Positions 1,030 through 37,659 are shown, numbered from the stretch's first letter. The stretch is DNA of 64,000 nt from Parcubacteria group bacterium Gr01-1014_30 (GCA_007376185.1 VMFS01000001.1:10768-74767); one strand, 5' to 3'. Numbers and translations: made by a program. The notes: a model not told the origin generated them from the letters alone.

Positions 1030-2058
1030 TTATTTTTCTCTGTCCATAACGAAGTCGGCGAGTTTAAACAAAAGGCCTCGCCAGACGTTATCGGGCAAAC
1101 CTCTGAGCTCTTTTTTGGCTTTCTCTAAGAAACCCCTTGCCAAAAAATCCGACTCTTTTCTGCTATTGGTTTTGGCTATCATAGCTATTCCTTTTTTAAC
1201 GTCTTTTGCGGTTACTTTGCCTTTTCTCAATATAGCCAAAAAGTTTTTTTTGTCGGCGGAACTAAACTCTCTGAAACTTTTCAAAATGACGATGTTCCCG
1301 AGCTTTCTTTCCACTATGTCGCCGCCAATGACTTTACCAAATGTTTCTTGTTTACCGAAAATATCCAAGATGTCGTCTTTAATCTGAAACACCAGTCCCA
1401 AATTAAATCCGTACTTTCTTAAAGACGCCAAATCTTTCTTGCTAGCTCCAGCGGCCATCGCGCCCAAAGCGCAGCACGTTCCAAACAAATGCGCTGTTTT
1501 TCCCCCTACCATCATAAAGTAATCTTTTTCGGTTACCTTATAATACCTATTTTCGACAACGTAGGGCTCATCCTCTCTCCCTGACTGTTCAAAGAGAATG
1601 TCCATAATTTCGCCGTCCATAACCGCTTTTAAACTTTCGGCAAAAAGCTCCGCCACTTCAGCCGGCCTTTTTACTTTAGCGGCCGCTTGAAAAGCTGACG
1701 CCGCAAAAGCCCAAGAAACGCATTCAGCAATTGACCTGCCAAACTTGGACCAAACCGTGGGGCTTCCCCTTCTTAAAGTGCTGTTGTCAATAATGTCGTC
1801 TATAATAAGAGTGTAGTTATGCAGTATCTCCAAGCCCGCTGCCTGGCGCAAAACGTCTTTGGTTTTGCCGCCAAGCATTCTGCAGCTGACTATGGCCAAA
1901 ACAGGTCGCAACCTTTTGCCTCCGGTCAAAAAGTGATACTTAACAAGCCCTTGATGCTTTTTATCAACAAAAGAAGCCAAAACTTCCTTGATATAAGAAT
2001 CAATAACTTTGCTGAATTTTCTCAGCGCAAAATCTAACTTTTTAAAACCCCTGCGCAT
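1030..2058 (-). CDS. Polyprenyl diphosphate synthase (trans-prenyltransferase, GGPP/FPP synthase-like)
   Basis: 342-aa ORF carrying both Asp-rich motifs (LIIDDIIDN and FQIKDDILDIFG). Confidence 0.85.
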   Translation of the reverse strand: MRRGFKKLDFALRKFSKVIDSYIKEVLASFVDKKHQGLVKYHFLTGGKRLRPVLAIVSCRMLGGKTKDVLRQAAGLEILHNYTLIIDDIIDNSTLRRGSPTVWSKFGRSIAECVSWAFAASAFQAAAKVKRPAEVAELFAESLKAVMDGEIMDILFEQSGREDEPYVVENRYYKVTEKDYFMMVGGKTAHLFGTCCALGAMAAGASKKDLASLRKYGFNLGLVFQIKDDILDIFGKQETFGKVIGGDIVERKLGNIVILKSFREFSSADKKNFLAILRKGKVTAKDVKKGIAMIAKTNSRKESDFLARGFLEKAKKELRGLPDNVWRGLLFKLADFVMDREK

Positions 2059-5187: not shown

Positions 5188-6933
5188 ATGAAAAATCAGG
5201 AAATAGCCAACATTTTTTACGAGATAGCTGATTTTCTGGAAATGGAAAGAGTGGCTTTCAGGCCCCAGGCTTATAAAAAAGCTGCCCTAACTTTGGAAGC
5301 GATGGAAAAAGACGTGGCGGATGTTTACAAAGAAGGCGGCCGGGCCGCATTGGAAAATATTCCCGGAGTGGGCAAGGGAATTTCAGAAAGGATTGAAGAA
5401 TATTTAAGAACCGGAAAAATAAAGTACTTGGAGCAGTTAAAGAAAAAGACGCCCGTCAACATAGAAGAAATGATAAAAGTTGAAGGACTGGGTCCGAAAA
5501 AAGTGAAAGTTCTTTTTGAAAAGTTGGGGGTAAGAAACTTAAATGACCTGGAAAAGGCGGCCAGAGCTCACAAAGTAGCTCCCCTTTTTGGTTTTGGCGA
5601 AAAGACCGAAAAAAACATTTTGGAAGGCATAGAGTTTTTGAAAAGAAGCAAAGGCAGGTTTTTGCTTGGCGAAATTTTACCCATGGTTTCAGAAATCAAA
5701 GAAAAATTGGAGAAACTGACGGAAGTTGAGCGCGTTGACTACTGCGGCTCAATAAGGAGAATGAAAGAAACAATCGGCGACGTTGACTTTTTGGTGATTT
5801 CAAAAAATCCAGAGAAAGTTATGGATTTTTTCGTTTCTTTGCCCGGCGTCGTCAAGGTCTGGGGTAAAGGAAAGACAAAAGCGTCCGTAAGAGTGAAAGA
5901 CGGCTACGACATGGATATAAGGGTGGTGCCAGAGCGGGTTTACGGCTCTGCCTTCCAGTACTTTACCGGCTCAAAAGAACACAACATCGTTACCAGAAAA
6001 ATTGCCATAGACAAAGGTCTAAAACTTTCAGAATACGGCCTTTTTCGCGGCTCAAGGACTGTTGTGGGCAAAACAGAGGAGGAAATTTACAAAGCGCTTG
6101 GCATGGTCTGCCCACCCCCAGAAATAAGAGAAAATCAAGGCGAGATTGAAGCCGCCCTTCGCCAAGCTCAGGGAAAACCTAACGGATTGCCAAAACTGGT
6201 TGAACTCGATGACGTTAAAGGAGACCTGCACACTCACTCTGACTGGAACGGAGGGAAAAACTCCATTGAAGAAATGGCAAAAGCCGCCCAAAATATGGGT
6301 TATGAGTACATAGGAATAGCTGACCACACCAAGTTTTTGCGAATTGAAAAAGGACTAAATGAAAAACAACTGGAACAACGCAATAAGGAAATAGAAAAAC
6401 TAAATTCTAGATTCCAGATTCAAAATTCTAGATTCCGCATACTCAAGGGGTGCGAGGCGAATATAATGAATGACGGTTCAATTGACATTAAAGACGAGGC
6501 CTTGGCAAAACTTGACTACGTCATTGCCGGAGTTCACTCCAACTTCAAAATGGAAAAAGATAAAATGACGGAGAGAATGATGAGAGCAATGAAAAGTCCT
6601 CACGTTGACGTAATTTCCCACCCTACGGGACGTTTAATTAAAAAACGTGATGAGTACCAAATCGACATGGAAAAAATTTTTAGGGTGGCTAAAGAAACCG
6701 GCACGATTCTAGAAATAAACGCTCATCCCGAAAGATTGGACTTAAACGACCAAAACGTCCGCCGCGCCAAGGACCTCGGAGTCAAAATGATAATCAACAC
6801 CGACTCCCATCACAAAGACCAGTTAAGATTTATGAAGTTTGGGGTAGCGCAAGCCCGCCGCGGCTGGGCCGAAAAAGAAGACATAATAAATACGCAACCG
6901 TTAGAGAAATTGCTGAGATGCTTTAAAAATTAA
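5188..6933 (+). CDS. polX: DNA polymerase X family protein with C-terminal PHP domain (PolX)
   Basis: 581 aa. HhH/Pol-beta-like N-terminal half (GVGKGISERIEEYL, GDVDFLV) and PHP half (DLHTHSDWNGG, GIADH, SHPTGR, NTDSHH). Confidence 0.9.
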   Translation: MKNQEIANIFYEIADFLEMERVAFRPQAYKKAALTLEAMEKDVADVYKEGGRAALENIPGVGKGISERIEEYLRTGKIKYLEQLKKKTPVNIEEMIKVEGLGPKKVKVLFEKLGVRNLNDLEKAARAHKVAPLFGFGEKTEKNILEGIEFLKRSKGRFLLGEILPMVSEIKEKLEKLTEVERVDYCGSIRRMKETIGDVDFLVISKNPEKVMDFFVSLPGVVKVWGKGKTKASVRVKDGYDMDIRVVPERVYGSAFQYFTGSKEHNIVTRKIAIDKGLKLSEYGLFRGSRTVVGKTEEEIYKALGMVCPPPEIRENQGEIEAALRQAQGKPNGLPKLVELDDVKGDLHTHSDWNGGKNSIEEMAKAAQNMGYEYIGIADHTKFLRIEKGLNEKQLEQRNKEIEKLNSRFQIQNSRFRILKGCEANIMNDGSIDIKDEALAKLDYVIAGVHSNFKMEKDKMTERMMRAMKSPHVDVISHPTGRLIKKRDEYQIDMEKIFRVAKETGTILEINAHPERLDLNDQNVRRAKDLGVKMIINTDSHHKDQLRFMKFGVAQARRGWAEKEDIINTQPLEKLLRCFKN

Positions 6934-7126
6934 CCTAATTGACCTAATTATTCTAATCAAATACCGAATCTCGCAAAGCGAGGCGAGGGGGGAGATGAAA
7001 CGAAGTTTCAGCGACCGCCAATGTCTAATACCAGAATGCCAAAAAACGTTTAGACATTAGACATTCAGGTATTAGTATTTGATTAGGTTAATTGGAAATT
7101 AGAATAATTAGAATAATTTATCACAT
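6934..7126. repeat. Nested palindromic intergenic element filling the whole polX-NUDIX gap
   Basis: Outer arms TAACCTAAT..CTAATCAAATAC / GTATTTGATTAGGTTAATT. Inner arms AATGTCTAATACC / GGTATTAG..TAGACATT. The core carries the GAAACGAAGTTTCAGCGAC motif. Confidence 0.6.
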
Positions 7127-10926: not shown

Positions 10927-10966
10927 CGAAGCGAGGCGACTGCCCCTTGCTTGCATTTTCCTGTCC

Positions 10967-11315
10967 GGTGGAGATGCCGAGAGTTGAACTCGGATCCAGA
11001 AAGTTTGCCAAAATCGTCTACAAGCTTAGTCGGTTTAGCCACCTCAAAACGCTGGATATAAAGCCGACAAAACTCCAACATTCCTAAGTCCCTTGAGTTC
11101 CCTGGTTCTGCGGGACGAAAAACCAAGACATCTCGATTTTATGACACCTGATGCCGCCTATCGAGAATCAGCGGTTCAGATGCCGCTAAGCTAAAGCTAA
11201 AGCGGGTTCTCTGTTAAATAAGTTGGCGCTTATTTTTTGTTTTGCCCGCCTGCGCAGGCAGGCGGGCAGGCCTGCTGATTTTGACAAATCATTCCTGTCT
11301 ACGCCTTCCATCCCC
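10967..11315 (-). ncRNA. ssrA: tmRNA (SsrA), tag peptide ANLFNREPALALA
   Basis: 5' GGGGATG pairs with 3' CATCTCC-A-CC, including G3:U. T-arm CCGAG-TTCAACT-CTCGG. Tag ORF GCC AAC TTA TTT AAC AGA GAA CCC GCT TTA GCT TTA GCT TAG at 11186-11227. Directly adjacent to smpB. Confidence 0.88.
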
Positions 11316-30319: not shown

Positions 30320-31042
30320 ATGCCGGAAAAAGCTAGGTTCAAAAGAATACTGCTTAAGTTGTCGGGCGAAACCTTGGGAGGGCGGGGAGGTTTTGGTCTT
30401 GACGTAAAAGCGGCTGAATACATAGCCGGAGAAATTAAGTCATCGAGCGACCTCGGCTGCCAAACTGCAGTTGTCATCGGCGGAGGAAACTTTGTTAGAG
30501 GAGAAAAATTATCCCACTTTGGCGTTGACCGCTCAACAGCAGATTACATGGGCATGCTTGGAACCGTGATTAACGGCTTGGCTTTGCAGAGCATACTTGA
30601 AAAAAAATTCGGCTTGGCAACGAGAGTCATGACGTCTTTTGAGATGAAAGCGGTGGCTGAACCATTCTTTCGCCGTAGGGCCTTGAGGCACCTTGAAAAA
30701 GGTAGAGTTGTAATTTTTGCCGGAGGCACGGGAAGCCCTTATTTTTCCACGGACACGGCAGCTGCGCTCCGCGCCTCGGAAATAGAATCTAAAGTTATTT
30801 TGAAAGCCACCAAAGTAAGAGGAGTTTACGAGAGCGACCCTAAAACCAACAAAAACGCCAAGTTCCTGCCGTCTATCTCCCACCTTGATATGGTAAAAAT
30901 GGGGCTAAAAGTAATGGATTTGACCGCCTTGACCTTAGCTATGTACAACAAAATTCCGGTAATTGTGTTTGACGTTTTTAAAAAGGGAAATTTGGTAAAA
31001 CTTCTGCTTGGACAAAAAATTGGAACTGAGATACGAGGGTAA
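30320..31042 (+). CDS. pyrH: UMP kinase
   Basis: RILLKLSGETLGG, VVIGGGNFVRG, GTGSPYFSTDTAAALRA. Confidence 0.95.
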   Translation: MPEKARFKRILLKLSGETLGGRGGFGLDVKAAEYIAGEIKSSSDLGCQTAVVIGGGNFVRGEKLSHFGVDRSTADYMGMLGTVINGLALQSILEKKFGLATRVMTSFEMKAVAEPFFRRRALRHLEKGRVVIFAGGTGSPYFSTDTAAALRASEIESKVILKATKVRGVYESDPKTNKNAKFLPSISHLDMVKMGLKVMDLTALTLAMYNKIPVIVFDVFKKGNLVKLLLGQKIGTEIRG

Positions 31043-31070
31043 TTGTGAATATCCTGTGGACAAAGCGCGG

Positions 31071-31097
31071 TTGACAAACTTTTGGCGGTTGTATAAT
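31071..31097 (+). promoter_or_regulatory. Near-consensus promoter of the orphan RNA
   Basis: TTGACA (31071-31076), 15-nt spacer, TATAAT (31092-31097). Confidence 0.6.
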
Positions 31098-31103
31098 CTA
31101 ATA

Positions 31104-31266
31104 GCCGAGGGGGTGCGGGATTTATTCCTTAAGGACACGGGACTCGGAGAAAGAGGTTAGATGTAGCTGTCTGGATAGGTCCAACTCCAGGGAATTCCAA
31201 ATTAACCGAATTCAGCGAGACCGCCCCCTCTTCAAAAAACCCGGTCGGCTTGCGTCCGGGTTTTTT
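31104..31266 (+). ncRNA. Unclassified structured RNA candidate (about 160 nt)
   Basis: Lies between a consensus promoter and an intrinsic terminator, with no ORF. The closing stem GAGGGGGUG / CCGCCCCCUC encloses the hairpin CUGGA-UAGGUCCAAC-UCCAG. Confidence 0.4.
31240..31266 (+). terminator. Rho-independent terminator
   Basis: CCCGGTCGGCTTGCGTCCGGG stem-loop preceded by A6 and followed by T6. Confidence 0.7.
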
Positions 31267-31280
31267 GATTAACGAACTTA

Positions 31281-31289
31281 TGGTAAAAT
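31281..31289 (+). promoter_or_regulatory. Extended -10 element giving a leaderless 31296 mRNA
   Basis: TGgTAAAAT. The A of the ATG (31296) lies 7 nt after the hexamer. No SD. Confidence 0.45.
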
Positions 31290-31295
31290 AAAAAC

Positions 31296-31865
31296 ATGAA
31301 AAGGGGAGAAAACTTTGAAATAGTCGTTTCAGGTGCGGCTCATATGACGCACTGCTGTTCAGGCATTAAAGAACTGTCTAAGGAAGTGGGGCGAGAAGTT
31401 GCTCGCCAGGGCTGCAACTTGGTTACCGGCGCCACCACTGGAGTCCCTTACTACGCGGCTCAGGGATGCAAGAGTGAGGGCGGTTTTTCCATTGGTTTTT
31501 CTCCAGCTTCCTCCGAAAAGGAACACTTAAAAACATACCGCCTGCCTTTGGACGCTTTTGATGTTATGATTTACACGGGCGCCGACTATGTGGGCCGCAA
31601 CGTTCTTATGACAAAATCGGCCGACGGCGTAATAATAGTTTGCGGCAGAATAGGCACTCTGCACGAATTTGCCACGGCCTTTGAGATTCAAAAGCCCATT
31701 GCGGTTTTAGAGGGCTCTGGCGGCACCGCCGACAAAATAAGGCAGCTTGCTTTGGGGCCTCACCGCGGCTTCACGAAAATTATTTACGAAAGAAGCCCAA
31801 AAGAACTGGTTAAAAAACTTATAGCCTTGGTTAAGGCAGAGAAAAAGAACAACCACAAGGTATAA
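31296..31865 (+). CDS. TIGR00725/LOG-like (SLOG) Rossmann-fold protein
   Basis: 189 aa. GATTGVPYYAAQG and IVCGRIGTLHEFATAFE (GGxGTxxE-like). Confidence 0.7.
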   Translation: MKRGENFEIVVSGAAHMTHCCSGIKELSKEVGREVARQGCNLVTGATTGVPYYAAQGCKSEGGFSIGFSPASSEKEHLKTYRLPLDAFDVMIYTGADYVGRNVLMTKSADGVIIVCGRIGTLHEFATAFEIQKPIAVLEGSGGTADKIRQLALGPHRGFTKIIYERSPKELVKKLIALVKAEKKNNHKV

Positions 31866-31896: not shown

Positions 31897-32166
31897 ATGG
31901 CGCAAAAAACTCCTTTGTCGGAAGGGAAACCAATCGGCAAAGTAAGCCACTATTTTTCCAACATAGCCGTTGCCGTTATTGATTTGACTGGCGGCCTTAA
32001 TATTGGTGATACCATTAGATTCGTCGGCGGGGAAACCGATTTTTCACAGGAGATCTCGTCAATGGAGATTGATCACAAAAAAGTTGAAAAAGCCAAATCT
32101 GGCGACTCGGTCGGAACGAAGGTTGAACAGAAAGTCCGTGAAGGATACAAAGTTTATAAACTCTAA
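31897..32166 (+). CDS. Small EF-Tu domain-2-like beta-barrel protein
   Basis: 89 aa. IGKVSHYFSNIAVAVIDLTGGLNIGDTIRF...KAKSGDSVGTKV resembles translation-factor domain II. Confidence 0.45.
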   Translation: MAQKTPLSEGKPIGKVSHYFSNIAVAVIDLTGGLNIGDTIRFVGGETDFSQEISSMEIDHKKVEKAKSGDSVGTKVEQKVREGYKVYKL

Positions 32167-32207: not shown

Positions 32208-32633
32208 ATGGAGATTTTTATTCAGTTGCTTTTGGCCGCTCTTTTGGGTGGATTTATCGGCCTGGAAAGAGAATACAAGAAGAAGGAGGCCGGCCTCAGA
32301 ACCTATTCTTTGGTTGCTTTGGGAGCTTGTTTTTTTGTAATAGTCGCCTTCGAAAGTTTCAACGTTTTTAAAAATGAGGCGGCAGTGGATTTTGATCCTA
32401 CTCGCATAATCGGCCAAATTGCCGTGGGGATAGGTTTTCTGGGAGCGGGACTGATTATTTTCCGCGGTTTCCACGTTGAGGGCTTAACGACGGCCGCGGG
32501 CCTATGGGTGACGGCAGCAGTCGGAGTTGCCGTTGGAGCGAAGCTCTATTTGCCCTCGGTCTTTGTTGCTCTGTTGGCCGTTATTGTCCTAGCCGGCCTG
32601 CGGTTTGCCGAAGAAAAATTTTTTAGAAAGTAA
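32208..32633 (+). CDS. MgtC/SapB family membrane protein
   Basis: LLAALLGGFIGLEREYKKKEAGLRTYSLVALGA signature. Confidence 0.85.
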   Translation: MEIFIQLLLAALLGGFIGLEREYKKKEAGLRTYSLVALGACFFVIVAFESFNVFKNEAAVDFDPTRIIGQIAVGIGFLGAGLIIFRGFHVEGLTTAAGLWVTAAVGVAVGAKLYLPSVFVALLAVIVLAGLRFAEEKFFRK

Positions 32634-33320: not shown

Positions 33321-34565
33321 ATGCAATTCGTCGCTGACTTTCATATACACTCAAAATACTCGAGAGCGACCTCAAAGGAGATGAACTTGGAACAGCTTGA
33401 CAAGTGGGCAAAGCTAAAAGGCATTAAGGTTTTAAGTTGTGGCGACTTCACGCATCCAGAATGGTTCAAAGAGCTGAAAGAAAAATTGGAGGAACAAGAG
33501 CCCGGGCTTTATAAACTGAAGAATTCCGCCAGCGGCACCAGGTTTATTCTTACGACAGAAATCAGCTGTATTTACTCAAAAAAAAATAAAGTTCGTAAAA
33601 TCCACATTTTGATTTTCGCTCCTTCGCTTGAGTCGGCGGAAAAAATTAACGCTAACTTGAGCTGGATAGGCAACCTGAAAGCTGACGGCAGGCCCATTTT
33701 GGGAATTGACGCAAAAGAGCTGGCCAAAATTGTCTTGAACGTTTCAGAAGAATGTTTAGTCGTTCCGGCTCATGCGTGGACGCCTTGGTTCAGCATCTTC
33801 GGGTCAAAATCCGGTTTTGACTCAATTGAAGAATGTTTTGAAGAATACTCCAAATATATTTACGCCATTGAAACAGGTTTATCAAGCTCGCCAGGTATGA
33901 ACTGGCGGTTGTCGACTCTAGATAAAATAACTCTTATTTCAAACAGCGACAGCCACTCTGCCAGAAAAATAGGCAGGGAAGCAAACGTTTTTGACACAGA
34001 ACTTTCTTTTGCCGCAATCGCTGAAGCTATAAAGAATAAAAACCCGCAAAAACTTTTATACACGGTTGAGTTTTTCCCCGAGGAAGGAAAATACCATTGG
34101 GACGGCCATCGTCTTTGCCAAGTAAGTTTGGCGCCTGAGGAGTCAAAAAAATCACAAAACATTTGCCCAAAATGCGGTAAAAACTTAACGATCGGTGTGC
34201 TGAACAGGATTGAGGAATTAGCCGACAGGCCAGATGGTTCAAAGCCACCCCAAGCCATCCCCTTCAAAAGCTTGATTCCTTTAGAGGAAATAATTGCCGA
34301 CGCTCTGGGCGTATTGCCAGGCGCCAAACAAGTTGAGTCTGAATACAAAACCTTAACTGAAAAATTTGGTTCTGAGTTTGAAGTTTTGCTGAACGTTTCT
34401 CGCCAAGATTTAGAAAAGGCCTCATCTTCAAAAATAGCTGAAGGCGTTGAAAGAGTGCGAGAGGGCAAAGTTCAAATTTCTCCGGGCTACGACGGTGTTT
34501 ACGGGAAAATTAAAATTTTCTCTGAAGGCAAACCAGCACCGTCAAGTCAAAAGTCGCTTTTTTAA
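33321..34565 (+). CDS. Endonuclease Q-like PHP-domain nuclease
   Basis: 414 aa. DFHIHSKYSRATS, VPAHAWTPWFS, SNSDSHS, GKYHWDGHR, and zinc finger CPKCGKNLTIGVLNRIEELAD, collinear with archaeal/Bacillus EndoQ. Confidence 0.8.
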   Translation: MQFVADFHIHSKYSRATSKEMNLEQLDKWAKLKGIKVLSCGDFTHPEWFKELKEKLEEQEPGLYKLKNSASGTRFILTTEISCIYSKKNKVRKIHILIFAPSLESAEKINANLSWIGNLKADGRPILGIDAKELAKIVLNVSEECLVVPAHAWTPWFSIFGSKSGFDSIEECFEEYSKYIYAIETGLSSSPGMNWRLSTLDKITLISNSDSHSARKIGREANVFDTELSFAAIAEAIKNKNPQKLLYTVEFFPEEGKYHWDGHRLCQVSLAPEESKKSQNICPKCGKNLTIGVLNRIEELADRPDGSKPPQAIPFKSLIPLEEIIADALGVLPGAKQVESEYKTLTEKFGSEFEVLLNVSRQDLEKASSSKIAEGVERVREGKVQISPGYDGVYGKIKIFSEGKPAPSSQKSLF

Positions 34566-34960: not shown

Positions 34961-35308
34961 CTTTGGCTTTTTAAGCTTACTTAAGATATCCAACGACTTA
35001 TACTGTCTAGAGCCATTATACACTACTCAAAAGAAATGTCAACTGCTCTGTGTATCTTTACAGTACGGCTCGAAACCATTTTCTGAAAAATTGCTAACGC
35101 AATTTTGAAACTTCTCCAAATCCGCTCGGGTGCGGCGGAAGGAGGGGGCAAAAAGAAAAAGGGATAATAATTTGGAAAGAAATTCGCGAAGTTCTTTTTT
35201 CGTTTTGGCTTGATTATTATTGACATTTCTTGTAATGTGATTTTGGTATTAAGCCCGATTGTCGGGCTTAAATCGTACATTCCCAACTAAAAACAGGAGG
35301 ACAGCGAC

Positions 35309-37127: not shown

Positions 37128-37583
37128 TTATAGCGGGCAATCAACCACTGCCCAGCCGCCGTCTGCCAAACCAGTCCACTCCATTACTCCGATTACATCA
37201 AAGAACAAGCTGACAATTATCCAAGCGGCGTAAATCAAAACCAATCCGATTATTGTCCAAGTGAAGGTTTGCTTGGCTCTTGAAAGCAAAGCTGGACCCC
37301 CCTCTCCTCCCTTTGCCACCACGCCAAAGTAGGCAAACACATACATAAACCCGCCGATGGCTATCATTAAAATGGCTAAGGGTGGAACAATCCTGGTTAA
37401 AAGGTACTGAACTACGTTTTGGAAAAGAACAAAGATGTGACAAAGCTGACACGCTGGCTCATCTTGCCCTCCGCAAGGCACGAGCCCAGCCGCAAAAGAA
37501 ACCAAAGGCATGAGCAAGATTCCCAGAATAATCGTTATAAACAAAATTGAAAATTGAAAATTGAAAATTGAAAATTTCCCCAT
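37128..37583 (-). CDS. VirB2/TrbC-like 'pilin' membrane protein
   Basis: 151 aa. Signal-like N-terminus, Cys pairs (CGG..ACQLC), and two long hydrophobic helices around a GGEGGP loop. Same architecture as the N-termini of ORFs 57367 and 62762. Confidence 0.6.
   Translation of the reverse strand: MGKFSIFNFQFSILFITIILGILLMPLVSFAAGLVPCGGQDEPACQLCHIFVLFQNVVQYLLTRIVPPLAILMIAIGGFMYVFAYFGVVAKGGEGGPALLSRAKQTFTWTIIGLVLIYAAWIIVSLFFDVIGVMEWTGLADGGWAVVDCPL
37543..37577. repeat. Heptanucleotide tandem repeat (AAAATTG x4 plus AAAATTT) inside codons 3-14 of the pilin-like gene
   Basis: Read directly. The coding strand is ATTTTCA x4, giving FSIFNFQFSI. Confidence 0.85.
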
Positions 37584-37659
37584 GGTGCGCCTGGTAGGAT
37601 TCGAGCCTACAGCCTGCGGTTCCGAAGACCGCCGCTCTATCCGGTTGAGCTACAGGCGC
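37583..37659 (-). tRNA. tRNA-Arg (anticodon UCG), CCA encoded
   Basis: GCGCCTG-TA-GCTC..GAGC-G-GCGGT-CT[TCG]GA-ACCGC-AGGCT-GTAGG-CTCGAAT-CCTAC-CAGGCGC-A-CCA. Confidence 0.9.

Follow-up and report, generated by a model that had tools for sequence, protein, structure and literature searches.

Genomic context and sequence features of the locus

The window analysed here is the whole 64,000-nt stretch of Parcubacteria group bacterium Gr01-1014_30 (GCA_007376185.1, VMFS01000001.1:10768-74767), and positions are counted from its first letter. Between pyrH and a gene of the SLOG cluster-4/TIGR00725 family, it contains a promoter, a folded RNA core of ~125 nt whose two ends pair and an intrinsic terminator, all on the + strand (Table 1). 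A preliminary description, made from the sequence alone, had presented this interval as an orphan structured RNA of about 160 nt, without an ORF, with a consensus promoter and an intrinsic terminator, and this observation is confirmed, since the sequence features that it named are present at the positions it gave.

Table 1. Features of the RNA locus and its neighbourhood in the window
Position	Strand	Feature	Supporting observations
30320-31042		pyrH	TIGR02075, 289 bits
31071-31076	+	-35 hexamer TTGACA of the RNA's own promoter	TTGACA present at this position in all 58 distinct family members
31092-31099	+	-10 region, read as TATAAT (31092-31097, 15-nt spacer) or, in the family register, TAATCT (31094-31099, 17-nt spacer, 7 nt before P1)	Spacer of 16-17 nt and TAnnnT in 57 of 58; 6-7 nt between the -10 and the first G of P1
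31105-31268	+	Predicted transcript (~160 nt): folded core 31107-31230 (124 nt) plus terminator hairpin; ends inferred	Covariance model R1 hits 31103-31239 at 104.3 bits, E about 1e-24, + strand only; start inferred from promoter spacing
31107-31113	+	P1 5' strand GAGGGGG, pairs with CCCCCUC at 31224-31230	99.8% of cells paired; GC to AU change at the inner pair
31117-31129	+	P2 hairpin (GGGA-UUUAU-UUCC)	99.6% paired; 3 of 4 pairs changed on both sides (AU/GC/CG/UG/UA)
31133-31136	+	Pseudoknot 5' strand GGAC in J2/3, pairs with GUCC at 31179-31182 in the P5 loop	100% paired in 62 sequences; one position is AU in 42, GC in 14 and CG in 6
31138-31151	+	P3 5' strand (long-range helix), pairs with 31211-31223	All 13 pairs changed on both sides; 84.7% paired
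31152-31154	+	Conserved internal loop, 5' side (family consensus GGA, AGA in the window), facing 31208-31210 (RAN, invariant A at 31209)	Invariant G and A columns in alignment A3
31155-31159	+	P4 5' strand GGUUA, pairs with UAACC at 31203-31207	All 4 modelled pairs changed on both sides; 85.5% paired
31163-31170	+	Palindrome 1 (GUAGCUGU), self-complementary 8-mer directly 5' of P5; proposed intermolecular duplex	Perfect in 61 of 62 sequences, 18 different sequences; 49 of 62 at the same offset against 2.6% background
31171-31190	+	P5 hairpin CUGGA-UAGGUCCAAC-UCCAG; loop carries the pseudoknot 3' strand	4 of 5 pairs changed on both sides; the lower paired fraction (79%) is due to misalignment of one clade
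31191-31198	+	Palindrome 2 (GGAAUUCC), self-complementary 8-mer directly 3' of P5; proposed second intermolecular duplex	Perfect in 46 of 62 sequences (about 19% expected by chance), 14 different sequences
31203-31230	+	3' strands of P4 (31203-31207), internal loop (31208-31210), P3 (31211-31223) and P1 (31224-31230)	
31232-31268	+	Intrinsic terminator AAAAAACCCGG...CCGGGUUUUUU: A-tract, GC stem and U-tract (UUUUUU at 31261-31266), directly abutting P1	Hairpin present in the MFE fold; the first 50 nt after P1 fold at -23.3 kcal/mol
31281-31289	+	Extended -10-like element TGgTAAAAT, 6 nt before the SLOG ATG; inferred separate promoter, leaderless or near-leaderless mRNA	Similar element in at least 36 of 58 relatives
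31296-31865	+	SLOG cluster-4/TIGR00725-family gene	Pfam PF18306, E 2.4e-34
31897-32166	+	EF-Tu-domain-2-like beta-barrel, 89 aa	Downstream of SLOG in 80/80 loci
32208-32633	+	MgtC	Downstream of SLOG in 70/73 loci
33321-34565	+	TIGR00375/PHP-type protein	Downstream of SLOG in 50/55 loci
35042-35015	-	Further perfect promoter (12/12 match)	

In the window, an acylphosphatase gene and a 133-aa ORF lie between the genes of the conserved cluster. A promoter scan requiring a spacer of 16-18 nt did not return the RNA promoter in its 15-nt reading, and the minus-strand match in Table 1 shows that it is not the only perfect promoter in the region. Two mechanically called ORFs overlap the RNA (31008-31160 on the + strand and 30935-31138 on the - strand), but they are not supported, as the family alignment contains indels that break the reading frame and its variation follows the helices. 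A small ORF (AUG-UAG after the SD-like GAGG) was likewise rejected because it is not conserved. Folded as a single sequence, the RNA is only modestly better than shuffled sequences (z = -2.4), so that the case rests on comparison rather than on thermodynamics.

Search for known RNA families and for homologues

At gathering score, Rfam 15 models identified only a tmRNA and three tRNAs in the window. A permissive local scan of 30950-31400, at E up to 10, gave only sub-threshold noise on the terminator, five divergent members of the family also gave no Rfam match, and ARAGORN found no tRNA or tmRNA at the locus. The divergent housekeeping RNA proposed in the preliminary description (SRP RNA or 6S RNA) has in its favour a strong promoter, paired 5' and 3' ends and a compatible size. 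However, no SRP or 6S model matched in any of these scans, and the fold described below is branched, carries a pseudoknot and lacks both the SRP helix-8 motifs and the central bubble of 6S RNA, the only hairpin loop with conserved sequence (UAUGUCCAAC) being engaged in the pseudoknot. The RNA is also absent from related CPR loci and confined to one SLOG clade. This reading is therefore largely refuted and very unlikely. A Moco or M-box riboswitch was excluded by the lack of covariance-model hits, and literature searches on TIGR00725, SLOG cluster 4 and Patescibacteria RNA motifs returned nothing relevant.

Exact-protein look-ups of the window's own genes returned only the source organism, and a scan of reference genomes based on pyrH, which is too conserved for this purpose, returned 80 loci from unrelated phyla that served only as negative controls. 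Protein searches identified four relatives with pyrH and SLOG on one contig, and in all four the intergenic RNA and its promoter are conserved, together with a terminator of different sequence. Named relatives are annotated as Paceibacteria/Pacebacteria or 'Patescibacteria group'. Two types of loci with altered context were decisive: Sungbacteria loci with pyrH but no SLOG lack the RNA, whereas a locus with SLOG but no pyrH (L097) has a strongly diverged copy with the same layout and visibly compensated helices. An nhmmer profile built from five close homologues missed this L097-type RNA, which was found by eye and later by the covariance model. We then searched metagenomes with the SLOG protein, and every locus with at least 200 nt of upstream sequence carries the RNA, giving 58-62 distinct sequences. 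A pattern scan of viral contigs gave six chance matches, with no covariance-model hit and no SLOG gene.

Covariation supports a pseudoknotted fold

We tested a model comprising P1, hairpin P2, long-range helix P3 (13 bp), P4, hairpin P5, a 4-bp pseudoknot between J2/3 and the P5 loop and the self-complementary 8-mer 5' of P5. A first MAFFT alignment without flanks (A2) had a ragged 3' end and was replaced by one including the natural flanks (A3), which was not fitted to any structure. In A3, 87.8% of cells are paired against 41-57% in slid controls, 33 of 42 pairs changed on both sides and the covariation score is 0.42 against 0.08-0.15. A second alignment (A5) was obtained from a search with covariance model R1, leaving out weak reverse-strand hits that had entered an earlier version (A4). 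In A5, with 62 distinct sequences, 90.7% of cells are paired against 40-56% in slid controls, 32 of 41 pairs changed on both sides and the score is 0.46 against 0.07-0.15. In both alignments, 0 of 500 shuffles reached the observed score, although the sequences are related by descent and shuffle statistics overstate their independence, so that the slid-partner controls and the number of distinct pair types are the more reliable measures. Covariation in relatives and a match to an Rfam family had been named beforehand as tests of the RNA, and the former was found while the latter was not. The covariation supports both the P1 pairing and hairpin P5, which the preliminary description had named, whereas that description missed the pseudoknot, the long P3/P4 rod and the meaning of the palindromes.

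G-U pairs are frequent, and covariance-model scores on the reverse strand are at most 18 bits against 83-130 bits on the forward strand, which shows that the constraint acts on the + strand RNA and not on DNA. The presence of palindromes and promoters could suggest a DNA-level feature, such as protein-binding palindromes or a regulatory region. However, the palindrome sequences differ between lineages, so that no single binding site is conserved, and this very unlikely reading is refuted by the covariation pattern. A CsrA-type GGA sponge was also rejected, since the first GGA covaries as part of the pseudoknot.

Self-complementary segments flanking P5

The 8-mers directly 5' and 3' of P5 remain self-complementary while their sequence changes. 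The central, physically adjacent nucleotides of palindrome 1 are complementary in all 61 sequences that have letters there (GC 34, AU 11, CG 9 and UA 7). Given that adjacent bases cannot pair within one molecule, the only RNA-level explanation is a duplex between two copies, and a symmetric homodimer or higher oligomer is thus implied, as an inference from covariation alone. RNAcofold of two copies always favoured domain-swapped dimers and is uninformative. A per-segment shuffle test was weak (median p 0.16-0.29), because the automatic detection of P5 clipped the palindromes and shuffled palindromic segments readily form new ones, and it was replaced by the position-anchored background test reported in Table 1. 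A further palindrome named in the preliminary description, CCUUAAGG, is not conserved as a palindrome and straddles the P2 3' strand and the J2/3 segment.

Transcription signals and the riboswitch reading

The promoter spacing, established by alignment with 57 relatives, indicates that the transcript should start at P1. Terminators are stable and begin 0-1 nt after P1; their stem sequence varies while the hairpin and U-run are kept, and the ACUAAA/UUUAGU arms at the base covary. In one clade, P1 is followed directly by a U-run. Between the terminator and the SLOG ATG, at least 36 of 58 loci carry TGnTAnAAT 6-9 nt before the ATG, mostly at 6, 7 or 9 nt, and this extended -10 form also occurs upstream of other genes in the window. 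Inverted-repeat insertions of 70-190 nt are tolerated between P1, the terminator, the promoter and the gene in several lineages.

A riboswitch or cis-regulatory leader, in which the folded domain would sense a metabolite or ion linked to the SLOG/MgtC cluster and control read-through from the strong upstream promoter, with the extended -10 giving only basal expression, has several points in its favour. The RNA is always directly upstream of, and on the same strand as, a conserved operon; it has the size of an aptamer, a covariation-supported fold with a pseudoknot and invariant junction nucleotides, and it is followed immediately by a terminator. SLOG relatives bind small nucleotide-like ligands, as seen from PDB hits to LOG enzymes and the Moco carrier protein. 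Only 4 of 43 long ORFs in the window have a Shine-Dalgarno-like motif, so read-through transcripts could still be translated and a cis role cannot be excluded. Nevertheless, two anti-terminator tests were null: the 3' part of the putative aptamer against the 5' arm of the terminator gives a mean z of 0.1, with 5% of sequences below -1.64, and appending that arm gains -1.7 kcal/mol against -1.65 for a shuffled arm, with P1 intact in 46 of 48. The RNA thus lacks the mutually exclusive expression platform that defines terminator riboswitches, and covarying palindromes that imply a dimer are not a usual riboswitch feature. Together with the separate promoter-like element and the tolerated insertions, these results favour two tandem transcription units, and a non-classical riboswitch or leader is an unlikely, but not excluded, alternative.

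Gene linkage and distribution

Covariance model R1 gave one + strand hit in each of 86 SLOG loci with enough upstream sequence, one in the 64-kb window, and none in the SLOG-less pyrH loci of Sungbacteria or in the 80 loci from other phyla. All copies were found through SLOG, so that these counts cover SLOG loci and about 0.5 Mb of flanking sequence only. Upstream, nine unrelated neighbour families were found in 48 loci, the commonest being a UbiE-type methyltransferase (31 of 48), and tRNA-Arg(CCG) is present in about 40 of 52 loci. pyrH is upstream in only 4 of 62 loci, and its presence in the window lineage, which has no tRNA-Arg(CCG) within 64 kb, is incidental. A T-box-like reader of the neighbouring tRNA-Arg was rejected because there is no conserved specifier. 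Downstream, the RNA heads a conserved cluster in which SLOG is followed by an 83-89-aa beta-barrel resembling EF-Tu domain 2, the U32 C-terminal domain and tRNA-binding Pbp11, then by MgtC and a full-length TIGR00375/PHP-type protein.

An sRNA, base-pairing in trans or otherwise independent, whose function is unrelated to SLOG and which is adjacent to it only through retained synteny, would be consistent with the RNA's own promoter and terminator, and 31 of 48 loci do share the same wider context of methyltransferase and tRNA-Arg(CCG), so part of the linkage is plain synteny. However, the upstream flank was rearranged at least 8 times, while the 30-60 nt RNA-SLOG junction was never broken in 86 loci, and nearly all conserved nucleotides are engaged in intramolecular structure, which leaves little seed-like single-stranded sequence. 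We consider this reading improbable.

In a library clustered at 50% identity, the whole RNA-bearing SLOG clade (at least 70% identity) collapses into one representative, and the next relatives are 45-53% identical. Four of these sister lineages were examined (Harrison-, Portnoy-, Roizman- and Azambacteria), with upstream gaps of 22, 188, 57 and 7 nt, and no covariance-model hit exceeded 11.7 bits with filters off. In these lineages, SLOG follows a beta-CASP/RMMBL ribonuclease or precedes S21-YqeY-YbeY. The RNA is thus a clade-specific addition to an older, RNA-metabolism-flavoured gene; the protein does not need it, which weakens an obligate RNP model and keeps open a regulatory role. The absence of the RNA from sister lineages is also what is expected for an add-on regulator, a point in favour of the riboswitch or leader reading.

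The SLOG protein is extremely conserved (about 79% mean column identity), keeps a LOG-like GRxGTLHE motif and has a Lys-rich C-terminal tail. Its closest solved relatives are TM1055 (1RCU, function unknown), a Moco carrier protein and LOG enzymes. The Lys-rich tail and the similarities of the beta-barrel are only weak hints of RNA binding.

Interpretation

It is close to certain that this is a genuine, conserved structured RNA of a family absent from Rfam 15 and from the searchable literature. It would be the founding example of this family, which is confined to one clade of Parcubacteria/Paceibacteria (CPR). The reading that we consider somewhat more likely than not is that of a free-standing, probably abundant, self-pairing RNA of about 160 nt. 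In this view, transcription starts about 7 nt after a near-consensus sigma-70 promoter, essentially at P1, and stops at a constitutive terminator. The core would fold into a rod of stacked helices (P1-P3-P4), with P2 branching off near the base and the distal P5 loop contacting the P2/P3 junction, and the two palindromes would pair with the same segments of a second molecule to give a symmetric homodimer. Because the RNA gene is never separated from the SLOG/beta-barrel/MgtC/TIGR00375 cluster in the loci examined, the RNA most likely acts on or with the products of that cluster, as an RNA partner or trans-acting regulator made next to them, and most likely not as a terminator-switching riboswitch. 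The family, its fold and strand, the gene linkage, the covarying palindromes and the lack of an anti-terminator are established by the analysis, whereas the transcript ends, the abundance, dimerisation in vivo and the functional link to the cluster, including any binding of its proteins, are inferred from sequence.

The interpretation given in the preliminary description is therefore partly supported. A structured RNA with its own strong promoter and terminator, a downstream gene with its own extended -10 and a new class rather than a known Rfam family are all supported, while high expression is only inferred from the invariant TTGACA. The RNA is not an orphan, being strictly linked to the SLOG cluster, and neither the association with pyrH nor the housekeeping identity is supported.

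A more speculative reading, tentative at best, is that function requires the symmetric homodimer, held by two covarying palindromic duplexes and possibly by a pseudoknot formed in trans, and that this dimer assembles with the dimeric SLOG protein and/or the EF-Tu-D2-like beta-barrel into a new ribonucleoprotein acting on nucleotides or RNA. If true, this would be a new RNA class with a new mode of architecture, in organisms where almost no RNA biology is known. CPR/Patescibacteria make up a large share of bacterial diversity, yet almost no lineage-specific non-coding RNAs are known from them. This RNA has the hallmarks of an important functional RNA, namely a conserved near-consensus promoter, a pseudoknotted fold backed by dozens of compensatory changes and strict linkage to a very highly conserved gene cluster of unknown function. 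The palindromes provide comparative evidence for RNA-RNA self-association in an RNA of only ~125 nt, making the idea of natural homo-oligomeric RNAs testable in a small, tractable molecule, and the RNA offers a handle on the unknown function of the SLOG cluster-4 family.

Comparison with known systems

In type III toxin-antitoxin loci such as toxIN, a promoter, a structured pseudoknotted RNA, a terminator and a protein gene follow one another, as they do here, and the RNA could be viewed as an antitoxin for the downstream protein, with the terminator setting their ratio. However, no tandem repeat was found in 30900-31400 and there is a single covariance-model hit per locus, the downstream protein is a conserved SLOG/LOG-like Rossmann protein rather than an endoRNase toxin, SLOG has a putative promoter of its own, and the locus is stably inherited within a conserved operon, unlike patchy toxin-antitoxin modules. 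This possibility is very unlikely. Transcription-terminating riboswitches share with this RNA an aptamer-sized domain closed by P1, with a pseudoknot and invariant junction bases, followed by an intrinsic terminator upstream of a conserved operon, but they differ in the anti-terminator, promoter and palindrome features discussed above, and no Rfam riboswitch family matches.

The implied self-association resembles that of the homo-oligomeric RNAs OLE, ROOL and GOLLD (PMC12286853), in that self-complementary segments maintained by covariation imply pairing between identical molecules. In this it also resembles palindromic dimerisation sites such as the retroviral DIS. Here, the core is only about 125 nt, and the two palindromes are linear, not loop-loop, and flank one hairpin. 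The RNA is a member of none of these families, but it would work most like the gene-linked structured RNAs OLE, encoded with oapA, and bacterial Y RNA (YrlA), encoded with rsr. There is no sequence or covariance-model similarity to them, the RNA is much smaller than OLE (~600 nt) and has no tRNA-like module as in YrlA, the putative partner would be SLOG or the EF-Tu-D2-like beta-barrel, and sister lineages have the protein without the RNA. As in these systems, a conserved, intricately folded RNA with its own transcription signals is kept adjacent to a particular protein gene across lineages, and OLE also forms homo-oligomers (PMC12286853).

tRNA genes and mobile-like repeats around the RNA-SLOG loci

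A tRNA-Arg(CCG) gene was found on the same strand as the structured RNA, 30-170 nt upstream of its -35 element, in about 40 of 52 SLOG loci, and the isoacceptor was always the same. In contrast, no tRNA-Arg(CCG) gene was detected in the 64 kb of the window, which contains only tRNA-Arg(TCG). Considered together with the EF-Tu-domain-2-like gene of the cluster, this association may hint at a tRNA-related function, or it may be plain synteny. Downstream of pyrH in a Sungbacteria locus (L088), we observed duplicated tRNA-like halves separated by AT-rich sequence, which may correspond to a split, duplicated or intron-containing tRNA gene. The window also encodes a tmRNA (111.6 bits) with the tag peptide ANLFNREPALALA, which is ordinary.

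A recurrent inverted-repeat element (CCCCGTTAGARA...TCTAACGGGG), 70-190 nt long and resembling a miniature mobile element, was identified in several SLOG loci. In some lineages it serves as the terminator hairpin of the RNA, while elsewhere it is inserted, with apparent target duplications (TAAAA, TAAAC), between the RNA, the terminator, the promoter and even the SLOG start codon. This element is absent from the window. In one clade of SLOG loci, the RNA has no separate terminator hairpin, and P1 (GAGGGGG/CCCCCUC) is followed directly by UUUUU, as if the closing helix of the folded domain itself served as the terminator stem.

Positions of the additional features in the window and in the SLOG and pyrH loci (L, locus)
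Sequence	Positions	Strand	Feature
L097 (SLOG locus)	5712-5784		tRNA-Arg(CCG)
L102 (SLOG locus)	1712-1784		tRNA-Arg(CCG)
About 38 other SLOG loci			tRNA-Arg(CCG)
Window	37583-37659	-	tRNA-Arg(TCG)
L086	2370-2500		Inverted-repeat element
L115			Inverted-repeat element
L117	790-900		Inverted-repeat element
L119			Inverted-repeat element
L138			Inverted-repeat element
L160	1920-1990		Inverted-repeat element
L163			Inverted-repeat element
L174			Inverted-repeat element
L175	510-574		Inverted-repeat element
L111	150-330		RNA without separate terminator hairpin
L126			RNA without separate terminator hairpin
L134			RNA without separate terminator hairpin
L187-L194			Sister SLOG/TIGR00725 genes
L088 (Sungbacteria)	6800-7100		Duplicated tRNA-like halves
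Window	10966-11315	-	tmRNA
Window	31296-31343		SLOG 5' segment upstream of the annotated start
Window	35015-35042	-	TTGACA-16-TATAAT, perfect promoter match

Expression signals, gene annotation and sister SLOG lineages

Only 4 of 43 long ORFs in the window have a Shine-Dalgarno-like motif within 16 nt of the start, and several genes have TGnTATAAT-type extended -10 elements close to the ATG. Thus, this genome appears to rely on SD-independent and partly leaderless initiation. A perfect match to the promoter consensus was also detected on the minus strand of the window. Regarding the SLOG gene, the protein deposited at NCBI is 173 aa long and starts at the internal ATG at 31344. Given that homologues cover the full 189 aa and that the conserved N-terminal FEIVVSGAA motif lies upstream of that ATG, the deposited annotation is probably N-terminally truncated.

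The sister SLOG/TIGR00725 genes (~50% identity) examined in Harrison-, Portnoy-, Azam- and Roizmanbacteria have no upstream RNA. They are embedded either next to a beta-CASP/RMMBL ribonuclease or next to S21-YqeY-YbeY-FtsA-FtsZ, which suggests that the protein family has an RNA- or ribosome-related role.
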